DNA from: an uncultured Syntrophaceae bacterium
GTDB taxonomy: Bacteria; Desulfobacterota; Syntrophia; Syntrophales; UBA2192
NCBI GenBank assembly: GCA_964429555.1
Contig: CAYSDD010000001.1
Coordinates: forward strand, 15,627-79,626
Direction of reading: 5' to 3'
Length of the DNA stretch: 64,000 bases
Below the pieces are notes generated by a model. The model worked only from the letters and a program-made list of their open reading frames with translations, did no database searches and was not told the DNA's origin. Positions 5,423 through 15,459 of the stretch are shown one piece after another. Each line of letters starts with the position of its first letter. The stretch's first letter is position 1. The position numbers were made by a program, and so were the translations under genes.

Positions 5423-6565
5423 ATGCCGGTTCGCGACATCGTTTTCATCCTCATCACGACCTCGACCGTCTACGCGTCGATCTACGCACCGCAGCCCATC
5501 CTGCCGCTGCTGGCCGGGGAGTTCGGGCAGACGACTGCCGGCGCCGCCCTTCTCATGACGGCCGTTCTGCTGCCCCTGAGTTTTGCGCCCCTGTTCTACG
5601 GCCTGCTGCTGGAATCGCAGCCCGCCAAACGGATGCTGCTCGTCACGATCGGGGCCCTGGCGCTGCTGCAGGCCGCCTTCGGAGCCGCCGAATCCTACGG
5701 TCAGCTCATCGCCGCCCGCCTCTTGCAGGGGGCCTGCGTGCCGGCCATCGTCGCCGCCATCACCTCCTATCTTGCCTACACGGTGGAACGGGAACACATC
5801 CAGCGGGCGATCACCTACTTCGTGGCGGCCAACATCCTGGGCGGTCTCGTGGGTCGCGTGCTTTCAGGCTGGGTGGCAACAGGCGCGGGGTGGCGCTACA
5901 CGTTTTTTCTGATCGCCGCGGTATTGGCCGGCTGCTTTGCGGCCGTGACCCGGATGAGGGCCGACTCGCGCCTGTCCATGTCGCCCGTGCGCCTCACGGC
6001 CGTCATGCCGATCCTCCGAAACGGCGACATCGCGAGGCTCTACGCCGTGGGCTTCACGATCTTCTTTGCCTTCATGGCCCTGCTGACGTTCCTTCCCTTC
6101 CGGCTCAAGGAGATCGACCCCTCCACCAGCGCCTTCGCGATCTCCATGACATACTCCGGCTTTCTCATGGGAATCGTCTCGTCGGCGACGGCGACGACGA
6201 TCATCCGGTTCGCGGGAGGCGAAAAGCGGGCGATGACGGTCGGACTCGGGATCTACGGGATCTCGATGCTGCTGGTCAACGCGCCCAGCGGGGCGGCGAT
6301 CTTCGCGATCATGTTCGTCATGTCCGGGGGGATGCTCTTCGTCCATGCCGTCGCCATGGGAACGGTAAACAAGCTTTCCGCGGAAAACCGGGCCGTCGCC
6401 AACGGCCTCTACATCTCCATTTACTACACGGGGGCGGCCCTGGGCTCCTGGCTGCCGGGGCTGATCTACCAGGGCGCCGGCTGGGCCGCCTTCACCCTCA
6501 CCCTCACGGCGGCCATCGCAGGCGCACTCGTCATCACCCGGGGCCTTCGCCTGCGGGCCGGTTGA
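5423..6565 (+). CDS. MFS transporter
   Basis: ORF 5159..6565; the realistic start is ATG 5423 (MPVRDIVFILITTSTVYASIY...). About 12 hydrophobic segments. The 5' extension overlaps ppiB in antisense. Confidence 0.8.
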   Translation: MPVRDIVFILITTSTVYASIYAPQPILPLLAGEFGQTTAGAALLMTAVLLPLSFAPLFYGLLLESQPAKRMLLVTIGALALLQAAFGAAESYGQLIAARLLQGACVPAIVAAITSYLAYTVEREHIQRAITYFVAANILGGLVGRVLSGWVATGAGWRYTFFLIAAVLAGCFAAVTRMRADSRLSMSPVRLTAVMPILRNGDIARLYAVGFTIFFAFMALLTFLPFRLKEIDPSTSAFAISMTYSGFLMGIVSSATATTIIRFAGGEKRAMTVGLGIYGISMLLVNAPSGAAIFAIMFVMSGGMLFVHAVAMGTVNKLSAENRAVANGLYISIYYTGAALGSWLPGLIYQGAGWAAFTLTLTAAIAGALVITRGLRLRAG

Positions 6566-6772
6566 GAGGCCGTTTCCTATTGCAAGATGTGAAAAACGTG
6601 AAGGTCTTTCCCTTCATCGCAGGTTTTCCATTTTACAGGGGCTACCCGAGATATCCAACCGGAACCCTGTAGGATAAACCCTTCGCTTTTGCCGTTTCCC
6701 GCAGGTCTGAGGCCGCCCGACATTTCAAATATTATCTTTTCATATCAATATCTTGCGAATAATCATTTGCTC

Positions 6773-7714: not shown

Positions 7715-7789
7715 CAGGTGCCGATCTCGTGTCCCGTCCCGGAAAACCATTCAATACGTATCCGGGCGGGATCGTCCTTCATGCAAAAC

Positions 7790-7898
7790 CGTCATCGCGA
7801 GGAGGCGCAGCCGACGTGGCGATCTGCGATTGAGAACTCTCAAAGGGAATTCTCTCAACGGAGGATTGCCACGCTTCGCTCGCAATGACGATTTTTTT
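7790..7898. repeat. ~100-bp palindromic intergenic element (MITE/REP-like) with T-run
   Basis: The outer arms cgtcatcgcgagg...gacgtggcgatc and gattgccacgcttcgctcgcaatgacg are imperfect reverse complements. The inner part TTGAGAacTCTCAA...TCTCTCAA forms sub-hairpins. The element ends in attttttt. Confidence 0.6.
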
Positions 7899-8050
7899 AG
7901 ACTCAGCAAGAAGCCGGCTGGACAATCATTGTAAATGAACTTCTGAGACAGGATACTAGTTCCCGCCGGCGCTAAAGTTTCAGGTGCAAAACAGGCAAAA
8001 GCCGGTTACAGTATGGGCCGGCAAACAAGAGAAAGAAAGGAGGGCAGGCC

Positions 8051-8464
8051 ATGCACAAAGAGACCTTGAGAAGAATCCTGACGGCTGCGGTTGTTGCCGT
8101 CGCCCTGACATTCGTCTTTGCGGCCGCCAGCCCGGCGGCGCCCGCCGCGGACCAGAAGAAGTTCGAGGAATACCGTGCGGCGATCCAGAAGGCACACGGC
8201 ATCGACATCAGGAACTTCAAGCAGAAGCTCAAGGGCGGCCGTGCCGACGCCCACAGGGTCACGGACTTCGATCTCGATCAGCTGATCATGGGGATCAAGG
8301 TCGAGCAGGAGCACACGACGGACAAGTACACGGCCCTCGAGATTTCCATGGACCACCTCGAGGAGATCCCGGACTACTACACGCGGCTGCACGAGATGGA
8401 GGAGACGGCCGAACAGGAGGCAGCCGAAGAGACGAGAAAGAAAGAGGCGGAAAAGAAGAAATAG
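8051..8464 (+). CDS. Secreted hypothetical protein with Glu/Lys-rich tail
   Basis: AAAGGAGGG RBS and signal peptide MHKETLRRILTAAVVAVALTFVFAAASPAAPA. The core GIKVEQEHTTDKYTALEISMDHLEEIPDYYTRL resembles a DUF family recalled from phage and bacterial proteins (unverified). Confidence 0.7.
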   Translation: MHKETLRRILTAAVVAVALTFVFAAASPAAPAADQKKFEEYRAAIQKAHGIDIRNFKQKLKGGRADAHRVTDFDLDQLIMGIKVEQEHTTDKYTALEISMDHLEEIPDYYTRLHEMEETAEQEAAEETRKKEAEKKK

Positions 8465-8487
8465 GCTTGACGCCGTTGAGATGACAA

Positions 8488-11059: not shown

Positions 11060-12370
11060 TTGCCTCACAATAAATGTTACCGGGGACGAGTTTCCGTAAG
11101 GGTCGTTGACTCATAATTCATGTTACCGGGAGAGAGACCTTCTCCAGGAGCCATGACGATGAGTCCGCGAACCAAACGGGAGTACCTCGAAGCCGTCCAC
11201 CGCCGATACAAGAACGCCACCCGGGACCAGAAGAGCCTCATCCTCGATGAGTACTGCGCCACCACGGGGTGCCATCGCAAGCATGCCATCCGGCAGCTCA
11301 ACGGCTTTCAGCGATTCACCGCCCCCAAACCCAAGAAGCGGGGGCGAAAGACCCTCTACGATCCCGAGGCCGTCCTCCGACCGCTGAAGAAGATCTGGCT
11401 GGCGGCCAATCTGCCCTGCTCCAAGCGCCTCAAGCCCATCGTGGCGCTCTGGCTGCCGGGCTACGAGGCCTCCTTCGGGACCCTGGCCCCGAAGGCCAGG
11501 GCGGCCCTGCTGCGGATCTCGGCGGCCACCATCGATCGCCTCCTCCAACCCACCCGAGAGCAGATGGCGCATCGGGGACGGGCCACCACCAAGCCCGGCG
11601 CCCTGCTGCGCAACCAGATCCCCCTGGGCACCAACCAGTGGGATCAAACCCAACCGGGCTTCCTGGAGGCCGACACCGTCGCCCACTGCGGGCTCTCCAT
11701 GGCCGGCCAGTTCGTCTACAGCCTCGACTGCGTCGATATCGCAACCACCTGGACCGAACAGCGGGCCCTCTGGGGCCGCGGCGAGCAGGGTGTGCTGGAG
11801 CAGCTCCAGGACATCGAGCAGCACCTGCCCTTTGAGATCCTGGGCTTCGACTGCGACAACGGCGGCGAGTTCCTCAACCGACATCTCGTGCGCCACTTCA
11901 CCGAACGAGTCCGGCCCGTTCAGTTCACCCGCAGCCGCGCCTACCGAAAGGACGACAACGCCCACGTCGAACAGAAAAACTGGACCCACATCCGCCAGTG
12001 GCTCGGCTATGAACGCTTCGATGACCCGGCCCTGGTCCCCTTGCTCAACGAGCTGTACCGCACCGAGTGGCGGCTCTTTCACAACTTCTTCTGCCCCTCG
12101 GTGAAACTCCTGGAAAAGGAACGGATCGGCGCCAGGACCCGCAAACGCTACGACACCCCGAAAACCCCGTACCAGAGGGTCATGGCGTCCAACGCCATCC
12201 CTCGAAAAACCAAAATCGCCCTCGCCGCTCAGTTCCGGACTCTCAACCCCTTCGTGCTCCGGGAGGCCATGGAACGCAAGCTTAAAAAAATCTTCGATCT
12301 CTGCTATAAGCGGGCTCTCTCCCGTCAGCGACCTGGGCCCCCTCCTCGGTAACATTTATTTATGAGGCAA
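11060..12370 (+). mobile_element. Insertion sequence (~1311 bp) with a single DDE transposase
   Basis: The terminal inverted repeats are TTGCCTCAcAATAAATGTTACCGgGGA (11060-11086) and the reverse complement of 12343-12370 (TTGCCTCAtaAATAAATGTTACCGaGGA). A second terminal-like copy tcataattcATGTTACCGGGA lies at 11111-11131. Subterminal CGGGAGAGAG sits at 11127-11136, with its inverted partner at 12316-12327. No clear target-site duplication is visible. Confidence 0.8.
11153..12352 (+). CDS. DDE (integrase-core/rve type) transposase; family uncertain (ISNCY-like by recollection)
   Basis: The N-terminal HTH is KREYLEAVHRRYKNATRDQKSLILDEYCATTGCHRKHAIRQL. The catalytic triad context is LEADTV..., FDCDNGGEF..., DNAHVEQKNW. 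The start is either ATG 11153 (AGGAG upstream) or ATG 11120. Confidence 0.85.
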   Translation: MTMSPRTKREYLEAVHRRYKNATRDQKSLILDEYCATTGCHRKHAIRQLNGFQRFTAPKPKKRGRKTLYDPEAVLRPLKKIWLAANLPCSKRLKPIVALWLPGYEASFGTLAPKARAALLRISAATIDRLLQPTREQMAHRGRATTKPGALLRNQIPLGTNQWDQTQPGFLEADTVAHCGLSMAGQFVYSLDCVDIATTWTEQRALWGRGEQGVLEQLQDIEQHLPFEILGFDCDNGGEFLNRHLVRHFTERVRPVQFTRSRAYRKDDNAHVEQKNWTHIRQWLGYERFDDPALVPLLNELYRTEWRLFHNFFCPSVKLLEKERIGARTRKRYDTPKTPYQRVMASNAIPRKTKIALAAQFRTLNPFVLREAMERKLKKIFDLCYKRALSRQRPGPPPR

Positions 12371-13058: not shown

Positions 13059-13796
13059 ATGATGAAGAACCCCGGCAAGAAACAGCAAGCGCAGGACATG
13101 GCGATCCTGCGTCGCGCCGTCGAGGAGCGGGATGCGATGCTTCACGATCTTCGGCAGCGGGAAGCGGCGTCGAGGAAAGCGGCGGAAAAGTACCGCATCA
13201 TCGCCGACAACACCTACGACTGGGAATTCTGGCTCGGGCCGAATGCCCAGTTCATCTACTCATCACCCTCGTGCGAAAGAATCTCGGGCTATCTCGCGGA
13301 CGAATTCGAGACGGATCCCACCCTGTTTTACCGGATCATCCACCCCGAGGATCTCGCCCGCGTGAACGAGCACATGAGTTGCAGGAAATACGAACCCGGC
13401 CTGGCCGAGATCGAGTTTCGGATCATCCGCCGGGACGGTGCCGAGCGGTGGGTTGCCCTGGCTTTTCAGCCGGTCTACGACGGCTCGTCGAGGTTTCTAG
13501 GCACGCGGGGAAGCAATCGGGACGTCACCGAACGGAAGCGTGCGGAGGCGGAGCGCGAAAAGCTCATCGGCGAGCTTCGCGATGCGCTGTCGCGCGTCAA
13601 GCTGCTGAGCGGGCTGCTCCCCATCTGTGCCTCCTGCAAGAAGATCCGGGACGACAAGGGCTACTGGAACCAGATCGAGTCCTATATCCGGGACCACTCG
13701 GAGGCCCATTTCAGCCACGGGATCTGTCCCGAGTGCGCACGAAAGGAATACCCGGAGCTCTTCGCGGAAACGGTGAAGAGGAAAACAGGCAAATAG
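13059..13796 (+). CDS. PAS-domain sensor protein with a conserved Cys/His-rich C-terminal tail and no classical output domain
   Basis: The protein has a coiled-coil N-terminus and a PAS core YRIIADNTYDWEFWLGPNAQFIYSSPSCERISGY...RIIRRDGAERWV...RDVTERKRAE. The tail is LLPICASCKKIRDDKGYWNQIESYIRDHSEAHFSHGICPEC. Confidence 0.8.
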   Translation: MMKNPGKKQQAQDMAILRRAVEERDAMLHDLRQREAASRKAAEKYRIIADNTYDWEFWLGPNAQFIYSSPSCERISGYLADEFETDPTLFYRIIHPEDLARVNEHMSCRKYEPGLAEIEFRIIRRDGAERWVALAFQPVYDGSSRFLGTRGSNRDVTERKRAEAEREKLIGELRDALSRVKLLSGLLPICASCKKIRDDKGYWNQIESYIRDHSEAHFSHGICPECARKEYPELFAETVKRKTGK

Positions 13797-13911
13797 CGAC
13801 GAAATCCTTGAAACCGAAAGGCCGGGGATGCGGGCCGGACCGGTATTGCGTCAGGCCTCGAGACCCGCAGCCTCACGTCCGTGACCTGCCCGTGGCTTGC
13901 CTGCGGGAAGC

Positions 13912-13942
13912 AAAAGGCCCCCACCGATGCGCGGAAGGGGCC
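13912..13942 (-). terminator. Rho-independent terminator of the micro-ORF operon (minus strand)
   Basis: On the minus strand this reads GGCCCC-ttccgcgcatcggtg-GGGGCC followed by TTTTGCTT. It lies 50 nt downstream of the micro-ORF A stop. Confidence 0.55.
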
Positions 13943-13992
13943 CTCAGCAAGGAGAACATCCTGTATATGTGAACGCGGCCCTGGCCGCCGGT

Positions 13993-14076
13993 TTACTTTC
14001 CGACAAAAGCGGGAAAGCACATGGGGTCCGCCCAGAACTTCTTGTCCTTCTTGATTCCCTTCGCCGTCTTTTTCAT
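13993..14076 (-). CDS. Micro-ORF A, 27 aa: MKKTAKGIKKDKKFWADPMCFPAFVGK
   Basis: Not in the ORF track because it is too short. ATG 14076 has GGAGG 7 nt upstream; GC3 is about 78%. It shares the W-x-D-P-M-C-F-P core with its neighbours. Confidence 0.6.
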   Translation of the reverse strand: MKKTAKGIKKDKKFWADPMCFPAFVGK

Positions 14077-14089
14077 CTTGCAGCCTCCT

Positions 14090-14236
14090 TTACGGCTTGT
14101 GTTTGAGTCTATCGGCCGGTCCCTCGAATTCCGGAAAGCACATGGGGTCATACCAGATGCCGCCACGCCTGTAGACCTTGTCTTTCTCCGGTCTCCGCCT
14201 TTTCTTCACGTCGTTTCCGCGCATCGACGTCGCCAT
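14090..14236 (-). CDS. Micro-ORF B, 48 aa: MATSMRGNDVKKRRRPEKDKVYRRGGIWYDPMCFPEFEGPADRLKHKP
   Basis: ATG 14236 has GGGAGG upstream. Its stop (14090-14092) abuts the SD of ORF A, with a 13-nt gap. It shares the same core motif. Confidence 0.6.
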   Translation of the reverse strand: MATSMRGNDVKKRRRPEKDKVYRRGGIWYDPMCFPEFEGPADRLKHKP

Positions 14237-14245
14237 GATTCCTCC

Positions 14246-14338
14246 CTAGCGGCCTCGCTTCGGCGCGTAGACGGGGAAGCTCATCGGGTCTGTCCAGTAC
14301 TTCTTGTCCAGCTTTGCGTTCTTGCCTCTTTCCTTCAT
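14246..14338 (-). CDS. Micro-ORF C, 30 aa: MKERGKNAKLDKKYWTDPMSFPVYAPKRGR
   Basis: ATG 14338 has GAGGAGG 8 nt upstream. Its stop TAG (14246-14248) lies inside the SD of ORF B, with a 9-nt gap. The core motif has Ser in place of Cys. Confidence 0.6.
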   Translation of the reverse strand: MKERGKNAKLDKKYWTDPMSFPVYAPKRGR

Positions 14339-14375
14339 GACCATACCTCCTCGAGTGTTTATGCGAGCCCCGGGG

Positions 14376-14507
14376 TCAGCGTGCGAGGCCATTGCGGGGA
14401 GGCAGGATGGGGTCCTCCCACACCCTGTCCACCCTCTCGCCCATCAGGTTGATCCGGGGGTCTCTGGTAACCCTGCTGTGTGCCGTCGTTTGAATCCGCG
14501 TCATCAT
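14376..14507 (-). CDS. Micro-ORF D, 43 aa: MMTRIQTTAHSRVTRDPRINLMGERVDRVWEDPILPPRNGLAR (divergent paralogue)
   Basis: This is the C-terminal part of track ORF 14376..14708. The ATG-ATG at 14507 follows a weak SD (AAGGGAA). It retains the W-x-D-P-I-x-P-P core. Whether the short or the long form is made is unresolved. Confidence 0.45.
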   Translation of the reverse strand: MMTRIQTTAHSRVTRDPRINLMGERVDRVWEDPILPPRNGLAR

Positions 14508-14839
14508 GTCTTGTTCCCTTTCGTCACCCCCAATATACGGTTTTTTTGTTTCCGGAAAATCGGCGGCGGTCTGAATCTTGGGTAGGAAAGCCGGACTTTC
14601 GAAGGGCAGAGGGCGTCTGAGTGGACCATAGGAGGTATGCCTATGGCGCCATACTGCTCTTGATCCGGTTGCATGCGGGCGAAGGAACGCATTGATCGCT
14701 TTGTTCACCGCCGTTGAACGTTTCTTTCAAGAAAACCCCCTGTCGCTGGCCTCCCGGGCAGTGACGGGCACGCCGGGTCATGATCGATACTGTAATCGAT
14801 TCAACAACTTGCAGATTATCTGCCATCCTCCTTTCACGT

Positions 14840-14855
14840 TGGCACGCTCCTTCCA
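14840..14855 (+). promoter_or_regulatory. Sigma-54-like promoter candidate (imperfect -12)
   Basis: TGGCACgctccTTCCA has a perfect -24 element, but the -12 is TTCC rather than TTGC. It lies 45 nt upstream of ATG 14900. Confidence 0.35.
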
Positions 14856-14899
14856 ATACGGATAGGCAAGAACACAAACACACCGAGGAGGACCTGACC

Positions 14900-15172
14900 A
14901 TGAAAAAGACGCTTTCCACCCTGATTCTTTCCGCCGCCGTCGTTCTGATCACCGCCGGCTTCGCCTTTGCCGAGTACGCGGCAGCCGGGGCGGGCAACTT
15001 CCCCTACTTCCACCTGGGGGCCCTGATCGTGGGGGGCATGACGATCGTATCGCTCAAGCAGAAGTACGAGAAGCTCTACCTCAGCGAGGCGGTGGGCAGC
15101 TTTGCGATGTACGCGGTGCTGGTGGCGCTCTTCACGAGCCCGGTGGCCGAGGCGATCAGGAATCTCATGTAA
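14900..15172 (+). CDS. Small membrane/secreted protein (90 aa), unknown function
   Basis: GAGGAGG RBS and signal peptide MKKTLSTLILSAAVVLITAGFAFA, followed by two hydrophobic segments. Confidence 0.65.
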   Translation: MKKTLSTLILSAAVVLITAGFAFAEYAAAGAGNFPYFHLGALIVGGMTIVSLKQKYEKLYLSEAVGSFAMYAVLVALFTSPVAEAIRNLM

Positions 15173-15207
15173 GAGGTGTGCAGGACGCAAGACAGGAGGC
15201 AGGGGCC

Positions 15208-15459
15208 ATGGCAGCGCAGGTGAAGGCAAGAGTTCGGCAGATTGATTTTTCGCACATCCTGGTGATCGGTTCCTGGGGGTTTGCGATCGTGATTGCCTCG
15301 ATGCTGGCGCTGTACATGGGGTACCTGCTGGACGAGATGCTGCGGACGCCGCCGACGTTCATGCTGGGGCTGTTCTTCCTGGCGCTGCTGCTGTGCATCG
15401 GGCGGCTCTACAAGGATGCCTGGGACCGTGTGGGCACGAAGGAGAAGGCCCGGGGCTAG
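15208..15459 (+). CDS. AtpZ/AtpI-like small two-TM protein
   Basis: An AGGAGG RBS precedes ATG 15208. GFAIVIASMLALYMGYLLDEMLRTPPTFMLGLFFLALLLCIGRLYKDAW fits the pattern of the putative F0F1-ATPase subunit AtpZ/AtpI family, but no ATP synthase genes are nearby. Confidence 0.55.
   Translation: MAAQVKARVRQIDFSHILVIGSWGFAIVIASMLALYMGYLLDEMLRTPPTFMLGLFFLALLLCIGRLYKDAWDRVGTKEKARG

Follow-up and report, generated by a model that had tools for sequence, protein, structure and literature searches.

The 64 kb window analysed here, a stretch of a contig from an uncultured Syntrophaceae bacterium, carries on its minus strand four consecutive and very small open reading frames (ORFs), D, C, B and A, which are preceded by a conserved control region and followed by an intrinsic-terminator-like hairpin (Table 1). 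Their coordinates, lengths and sequences are those given by an initial annotation of the window, which had called them unannotated; public gene calls already carry products of 27, 30/32, 43 and 48 amino acids (aa), so that the description holds only in the sense that these are entered as hypothetical proteins. The same annotation had credited A, B and C with a strong Shine-Dalgarno (SD) sequence 5-8 nt before the ATG; this spacing is found for C and A (7 nt each) and not for B (4 nt), and the start of D is preceded only by AAGGGAA, about 10 nt upstream. The close packing that it described is borne out: the stop codon of C lies inside the SD of B (9-nt gap) and that of B abuts the SD of A (13-nt gap). 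The G+C content at third codon positions is 0.75-0.83 in the four micro-ORFs and 0.80-0.88 in the neighbouring genes, in agreement with the earlier figure of about 80% and with its resemblance to real genes. In the six-frame translation of the whole window, the pattern W.DP[MI]..P has four matches, found only in ORFs A-D. Among NCBI assemblies of metagenome-assembled genomes, GCA_020049655.1 matches the window.

Table 1. The micro-ORF operon and its control elements in the window (positions count from the first letter of the window)
Feature	Position	Strand	Description
ORF D	14376..14507	-	43 aa, MMTRIQTTAHSRVTRDPRINLMGERVDRVWEDPILPPRNGLAR; first gene of the operon in every locus
ORF C	14246..14338	-	30 aa, MKERGKNAKLDKKYWTDPMSFPVYAPKRGR; SD GAGGAGG 7 nt before ATG
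ORF B	14090..14236	-	48 aa, MATSMRGNDVKKRRRPEKDKVYRRGGIWYDPMCFPEFEGPADRLKHKP; SD GGGAGG 4 nt before ATG, overlapping the stop of C
ORF A	13993..14076	-	27 aa, MKKTAKGIKKDKKFWADPMCFPAFVGK; SD AAGGAGG 7 nt before ATG, next to the stop of B
Conserved upstream control region	14516..14654	-	139 nt; putative promoter plus operator or structured leader
Inverted repeat H1	14626..14646	-	CCATAGG-N7-CCTATGG; CCATCAG-N7-CTGATGG in loci without B
Invariant block ATTCAGAC-CGC-CGCCGATTT	14557..14576	-	Invariant in alignment A6; where a -35 element or activator site would be expected
-10-like hexamer TATATT	14532..14537	-	GATAAT in most orthologous loci; position and sequence kept in alignments A3 and A6
ACGAAAGGGAACAA element	14511..14524	-	Just upstream of D; nearly invariant in 61 sequences
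Intrinsic-terminator-like hairpin plus TTTT	13912..13943	-	GGCCCC/GGGGCC; scan match 13937-13918, arms by eye

The comparison of orthologous loci makes it almost certain that the four ORFs are real protein-coding genes under purifying selection. A search of the whole metagenome collection with the back-translated core W[ATN]DPM[SC][FY]P returned 168 stretches, 137 of which are relatives; 80 were retrieved. The comparison covers 96 non-redundant loci, nearly all labelled Syntrophales or Syntrophaceae. The Syntrophales act as key partners in methanogenic degradation and are mostly uncultured; the sources of the loci are anaerobic digesters, sludge and wetland sediments. Across the 96 loci the gene order is constant, namely D, C, an optional B and usually A: C is present in 90 loci and always second, B in 37 and A in 72, where it is always last. 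Reading frames and lengths are kept in all loci examined, with the possible exception of a C-like ORF in the divergent locus L022, and the frame conservation that the initial annotation had made a test of its proposal is thus found across the set. The SDs are conserved among orthologous loci, and substitutions between orthologues fall mostly at third codon positions; in C, the variable columns number 6, 15 and 24 at the first, second and third positions. The ratio of non-synonymous to synonymous polymorphism (pN/pS) is 0.17 for C (66 unique sequences), 0.16 for A (55 unique sequences) and 0.08 for the core of B (24 unique sequences). D, which falls into three sub-types and about 60 clusters at 90% identity, has a higher pN/pS of 0.47-0.58 (the upper value from 70 unique sequences). 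The earlier proposal that selection acts on the peptides and not on a DNA repeat therefore stands, with frames kept among orthologues and pN/pS between 0.08 and 0.58.

One comparison within the window points the other way. Between the paralogous cores, nucleotide identity (0.44-0.73) is not lower than amino-acid identity (0.27-0.60), which is the pattern that the initial annotation had named as the mark of a non-coding repeat; many spurious ORFs also arise in GC-rich DNA, so that chance ORFs would be a further way to account for the locus. The identity comparison is, however, a weak test for short and diverged copies, and it is outweighed by the comparison of orthologues, in which frames, start codons and lengths are kept in about 100 loci, changes concentrate at third positions and pN/pS is well below 1; the SDs are conserved as well, and the motif is confined to these ORFs in the window. 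On these comparisons a non-coding repeat or a set of chance ORFs is effectively refuted, and the probability left to it is negligible.

The family is, as far as sequence comparison can tell, narrow, clade-restricted and without detectable relatives. A profile of the four peptides run against a collection of 5.8 billion proteins retrieved 82 tiny proteins, all hypothetical and all belonging to the same four families, whose organism, where the source names one, is Syntrophales or Syntrophaceae. A hidden Markov model (HMM) search of 1.84 billion representative proteins gave 24 matches, all from these four families except for two spurious repeat proteins, and no larger protein containing the module. 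In a scan of one genome per species, D was found in 15 loci, of which 13 are labelled Syntrophales, Syntrophaceae, Syntrophobacterales or uncultured delta proteobacterium, and one, the divergent L022, lies in a bin labelled Nitrospirota. The initial annotation had not recognised the family, and none of the libraries tried does so either: the four peptides have no match in Pfam-A, NCBIfam, PHROGs or PADLOC at E values up to 10, apart from a sub-threshold match of B to the NCBIfam model TIGR04447 (PatC), which reaches 16.7 bits against a cut-off of 30, and a profile search of the PDB gave 0 matches. The motif strings were not found in a full-text literature search. A phage origin was considered and set aside, no relative of D being present in the viral contig collection. 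Conserved orphan families of small proteins and tandem operons of micro-genes are in themselves a known kind of thing.

The initial annotation had treated all four peptides as paralogues, which is well founded for three of them. A, B and C align over their full length as M-K-x4-6-K-x-D-[KR]-[KR]-aromatic-W-x-D-P-M-[C/S]-[F/Y]-P, an alignment that makes them clearly paralogous, whereas D matches A and C over a 10-residue core only (hhalign probability 39%, P 3e-4); D is counted with the others because of this shared core and of its constant co-location with them. Common to all four are the Trp, the Asp, the Pro, an aliphatic or Met residue and a second Pro at +4, which gives the core W-x-D-P-[M/I/L]-x-x-P. 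The W-x-D part does not vary in A, C or D and hardly varies in B, where the B-like copy of L022 reads L-F-D. The site between the two prolines that had attracted attention for its alternation of Cys and Ser is less constrained: it is Cys or Ser in A, mostly Ser but also Cys or Asn in C, and Leu in D.

All four peptides are strongly basic and hydrophilic, with a net charge of +3 to +6, an isoelectric point of 10-11.5, a grand average of hydropathy (GRAVY) of -0.56 to -1.44 and 2-5 prolines each, and neither a signal peptide nor a hydrophobic segment was seen in the four sequences. AlphaFold models made with the family alignments have a mean predicted local distance difference test (pLDDT) score of 57 for both D and B; D shows no secondary structure and B only a weak two-strand hairpin, so that the modelling finds no stable fold for D or B alone.

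Upstream of D, the 139-nt control region is conserved with hardly any indels: the alignment of 61 distinct sequences (A6, of loci L001-L108) contains a single gap column and 45 invariant columns. From its distal end towards D, it is made of the inverted repeat H1, another short palindrome with TCAGAC as its basis, a GC-rich, variable stretch able to form local folds in single sequences, the motif ATTCAGAC-N3-CGCCGATTT, the GATAAT/TATATT block and the ACGAAAGGGAACAA element. The motif ATTCAGAC-N3-CGCCGATTT has a single match in the window, lies upstream of D in every locus checked and occurs in exactly one copy per locus in 92 of the 96 loci (640 kb searched); no second copy that would speak for a regulon was found in the window or in the 640 kb of flanks. 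H1 consists of seven pairs, with 91% of the alignment cells paired against 30-40% in slid controls, and its two central pairs change in concert (CG/AU to AU/GC) between loci with and without B, a pattern that fits either an RNA/DNA hairpin or a palindromic operator. In the RNAalifold prediction for the upstream block, a long-range stem is broken in window-type loci, whereas the 7-bp H1 is kept. An Rfam search of positions 13800-15000 on both strands gave nothing credible, the best matches being a small nucleolar RNA at an E value of 0.21 and the TPP riboswitch at 14 bits against a threshold of 54 and on the wrong strand.

The -10-like TATATT hexamer noted in the initial annotation is real. Nearly all of the 61 orthologous upstream regions have a GATAAT/TATATT block in one constant position, and the hexamer aligns with it. 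A scan for the sigma-70 consensus found no -35 partner for it. No GG-N10-GC was seen by eye, and a sigma-54 promoter was rejected; GCCGATTT bears a possible resemblance, again by eye, to the -10 element of sigma-28, GCCGATAA. The distance from ACGAAAGGGAACAA to the ATG ranges from about 3 to about 50 nt, and this element is therefore not simply an SD in most loci. In locus L001, the gene of an M48 peptidase that follows the operon terminator has a near-consensus sigma-70 promoter (TTGACT-17-TATGAT, at 6490-6590), which indicates that canonical promoters are in use in the clade, whereas the micro-ORF operon lacks a -35 match; from this difference, the promoter of the operon is probably activator-dependent. 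At the other end, a GC hairpin followed by a T-run stands after the last micro-ORF in the window and in L001, L015 and L022; the terminator that the initial annotation had placed at 13942-13912 coincides with the scan match, to which inspection by eye adds the GGCCCC/GGGGCC arms and the TTTT. The view of the locus as a compact operon bracketed by a promoter-like element and a terminator is thereby supported, and, judged on these elements, the operon is a closed and self-contained unit made of control region, genes and terminator.

The operon occurs in two types of surroundings. Of the 96 loci, 59 lack B; in these, a membrane-anchored metallophosphoesterase is encoded divergently upstream in 39, and an M48 peptidase with a lipoprotein-type signal, transcribed from its own promoter after the terminator, follows downstream in 26. 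The other 37 loci, the window included, contain B, and the M48 gene was found in none of them. A 90-aa membrane protein and an AtpI-like protein are encoded divergently from the operon in 11 loci, 9 of which have B; no similarity was found between the transmembrane metallophosphoesterase and this pair. Since Syntrophaceae bacterium UBA2192 carries both locus types in one genome (L011 and L023), the two types are paralogous operons. Of the neighbours that the initial annotation had proposed as possible syntenic partners, the two small membrane-protein genes thus recur, whereas the PAS gene recurs in only one other locus. Within 5-10 kb, the precomputed Pfam matches of the window-type context include IclR, SDR, UxaC, AtpI-like, PAS, Rnk, CobD and CbiA, among others, and those of the other context Metallophos, M48, nitroreductase, flavodoxin, ThiF/ThiS, AFOR and thioredoxin-like proteins, with no known maturase. 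No radical S-adenosylmethionine (SAM) enzyme, YcaO, lanthipeptide-type enzyme, leader protease or ABC exporter lies within this distance in either context, and no C39 or ABC-type gene in the flanks of either locus type; the earlier remark that no maturase, protease or exporter is adjacent is confirmed and extended to both contexts. Going by its gene neighbourhoods, the operon belongs to no biosynthetic or export cluster that can be recognised.

Taken together, these properties are best accommodated by a self-contained operon specific to the lineage, whose translated products are very small basic proteins that dock onto a partner, a reading to which we give a probability of about 0.4. This value is a compromise between the near certainty that the ORFs are coding genes and a much lower confidence in the docking itself: that the products are disordered, basic cytoplasmic microproteins which dock a common partner through the invariant core is only a tentative proposal. 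The peptides would remain in the cytoplasm, as suggested by the lack of a signal peptide or hydrophobic segment, the hydrophilic GRAVY values and the positive net charge, and would be disordered on their own. The shared core W-x-D-P-[M/I/L]-x-x-P would dock into a common macromolecular partner, and the N-terminal halves, rich in Lys and Arg, would contribute electrostatic attraction to an acidic surface such as those of nucleic acids, ribosomes or acidic proteins. Joint production of the paralogues would follow from translational coupling through the strong SDs and the overlaps of stop codons with SDs, and expression would depend on a dedicated regulator, as suggested by a -10-like box that has no -35 match and stands beside invariant and palindromic blocks.

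The peptides may also be a small basic regulatory or nucleic-acid-associated family, as the initial annotation had suggested. A comparison can be drawn with very small basic ribosomal and ribosome-associated proteins of the bL34, bL36, bS21 and Sra type, which the peptides resemble in their size (27-48 aa), isoelectric point, strong SDs and predicted lack of an independent fold. They differ from these proteins in having no match in Pfam, NCBIfam or the PDB, in being restricted to a narrow clade where the latter are universal, and in forming tandem paralogues, an arrangement untypical of ribosomal proteins. Several points weigh against partner docking. No partner gene can be identified by synteny, and the kinship of D to the other three extends over 10 residues only. 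[quoted passage not shown] A good share of the probability is therefore left for functions beyond all of the readings considered here.

The peptides could be precursors of a RiPP or peptide-derived cofactor of an unrecognised kind, with an unlinked maturase acting on W-x-D or on the Cys/Ser site. Three to four ORFs of 26-48 aa in tandem, all under purifying selection and with a conserved C-terminal core, have the look of such precursors; no fold is predicted for them, one site of A and C alternates between Cys and Ser, and the Trp, Asp and Pro are invariant (nearly so in B), W-x-D being a motif of the three-residue cyclophane type. Radical-SAM cyclophane RiPPs use aromatic-X-X motifs such as WPR and WGK (PMC11851443), and the likeness to their precursors (the triceptides; WprA, WgkA, streptide) extends to short, multiple and disordered copies; W-x-D fits the aromatic-X-X pattern of the triceptides, although a pattern this short could match by coincidence. 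Described precursors of the triceptide type, however, have both a recognition-element protein and a radical SAM enzyme encoded beside them (PMC11851443), whereas here no adjacent radical SAM/SPASM synthase or RiPP recognition element, nor any YcaO, Lan-type or MNIO enzyme, protease or ABC exporter, lies within 6-10 kb in two unrelated contexts. The whole peptide is conserved, the N-terminal "leader" as much as the "core", and apart from the sub-threshold PatC match no precursor model of NCBIfam or Pfam recognises the sequences. The Cys/Ser site itself tolerates Asn and is Leu in D. The substrate motif of formylglycine formation by anaerobic sulfatase-maturating enzymes (anSME) is C/S-x-P-x-R; the initial annotation had stressed the Cys/Ser-x-Pro likeness, and a Cys or Ser followed two residues on by Pro is indeed present, but the sequence here runs [C/S/N]-[F/Y]-P-[A/V/E]-[F/Y], without Arg at +4 and with a Cys/Ser that is not invariant, and the peptides are not sulfatases, so that this emphasis is not sustained. 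The precursor reading is weakened by the variable Cys/Ser site and by the maturase-free contexts, and we regard it as unlikely. Its most developed form, in which the peptides would give rise, as precursors or as precursors with a scaffold, to a new peptide-derived natural product or redox cofactor built on the invariant Trp-x-Asp-Pro core (for example through a Trp-Asp or Trp/Cys cross-link), with an unlinked maturase and a dedicated regulator that turns the operon on through the 139-nt region, is likewise a long shot.

Another way to account for a set of tandem cationic peptides is that they are leaderless and exported, bacteriocin-like or resembling the phenol-soluble modulins (PSMs), and act as a multi-peptide set on membranes or on other cells. 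The PSM alpha genes of Staphylococcus aureus lie in one operon under a dedicated regulator. They encode four alpha-type peptides of 20-24 aa (PMC8451463), and the architecture described here is like that of such multi-peptide operons, in which several paralogous micro-genes, some 20 codons or more in length, lie in tandem and are missed by standard annotation; the positive charge, the Trp/Phe/Pro-rich C-termini and the presence of membrane proteins as divergent neighbours in both contexts would also suit export. PSMs are, however, hydrophobic amphipathic helices exported by the ABC transporter PmtCD (PMC12623860), whereas the present peptides are highly charged, strongly hydrophilic and proline-containing, which does not make for amphipathic helices, are predicted to be unstructured (no helix in the AlphaFold models of D and B) and share no sequence similarity with PSMs; no ABC exporter or immunity gene was found nearby, and the membrane-protein neighbours differ between the contexts and are mutually unrelated. 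Exported peptides are accordingly a quite improbable reading. Tightly coupled ORFs with strong SDs could also serve in cis, as leader or ribosome-arrest ORFs whose translation matters and not its product, and Trp, Asp and Pro are typically among the residues on which arrest peptides such as TnaC depend. Against this, the operon has no downstream gene to regulate, since the last ORF is followed by a terminator, beyond which the next gene either is convergent or is served by a promoter of its own; purifying selection extends along the whole length of the peptides, and three to four serial ORFs are without known precedent as leaders, which makes a role in cis very unlikely.

The operon offers a well-delimited and strongly selected set of microproteins with a clear motif and a private, unusually rigid control region, and with it a workable starting point for learning the role of proteins this small. 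Direct synthesis is feasible for peptides of 26-30 aa, which could then serve in pull-downs, and the control region provides a handle on the inducing condition. The locus also illustrates how patchily genes of fewer than 30 codons are called in public data. Binding of the peptides to the ribosome, RNA polymerase or nucleic acid would make them a clade-specific regulatory layer; if instead they are modified, they would represent a RiPP or cofactor class with unlinked biosynthesis.

Among the neighbours in the window, the two small membrane-protein genes (14780-15459, plus strand) are divergent from the operon; the first encodes about 90 aa with a signal-like N-terminus and the second about 83 aa with a weak match to PF09527 (ATPase_gene1/AtpI-like), and no ATP synthase genes are found near this pair. 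The gene convergent with the operon (13059-13796, plus strand) encodes a PAS_3 protein whose end is rich in Cys (LLPICASCKKIRDDKGYW...HGICPECARKEY). An ORF of 410 aa (11120-12352, plus strand) without a precomputed Pfam match, at a distance of three genes, shares its interval with an equally long ORF on the opposite strand; from its sequence, it looks like a candidate DDE-type transposase/integrase, which might be tied to the different context of the B-containing locus type.

The most divergent locus is L022 (positions 7780-8480; contig DATJZV010000160.1), in the bin labelled Nitrospirota. D is intact there, and most of the conserved upstream block is missing. Compared with its orthologues, the C-like ORF seems to be out of register by 1 nt or to have lost the ATG, and the B-like ORF, which contains RRHGILFDPMCYP, has Leu in place of Trp, with Leu-Phe standing for Trp-Tyr. 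L022 may be a mis-binned contig or a true outlier. A programmed read-through from D into C across the TGA stop was considered and rejected: D and C share one phase in some loci (L001), whereas in the window and in L008 they do not. One public protein of 86 aa (P0083) is a D-C fusion, in which TGG (Trp) stands for the TGA stop of D and the 36-nt spacer keeps the frame; it is probably a point variant.

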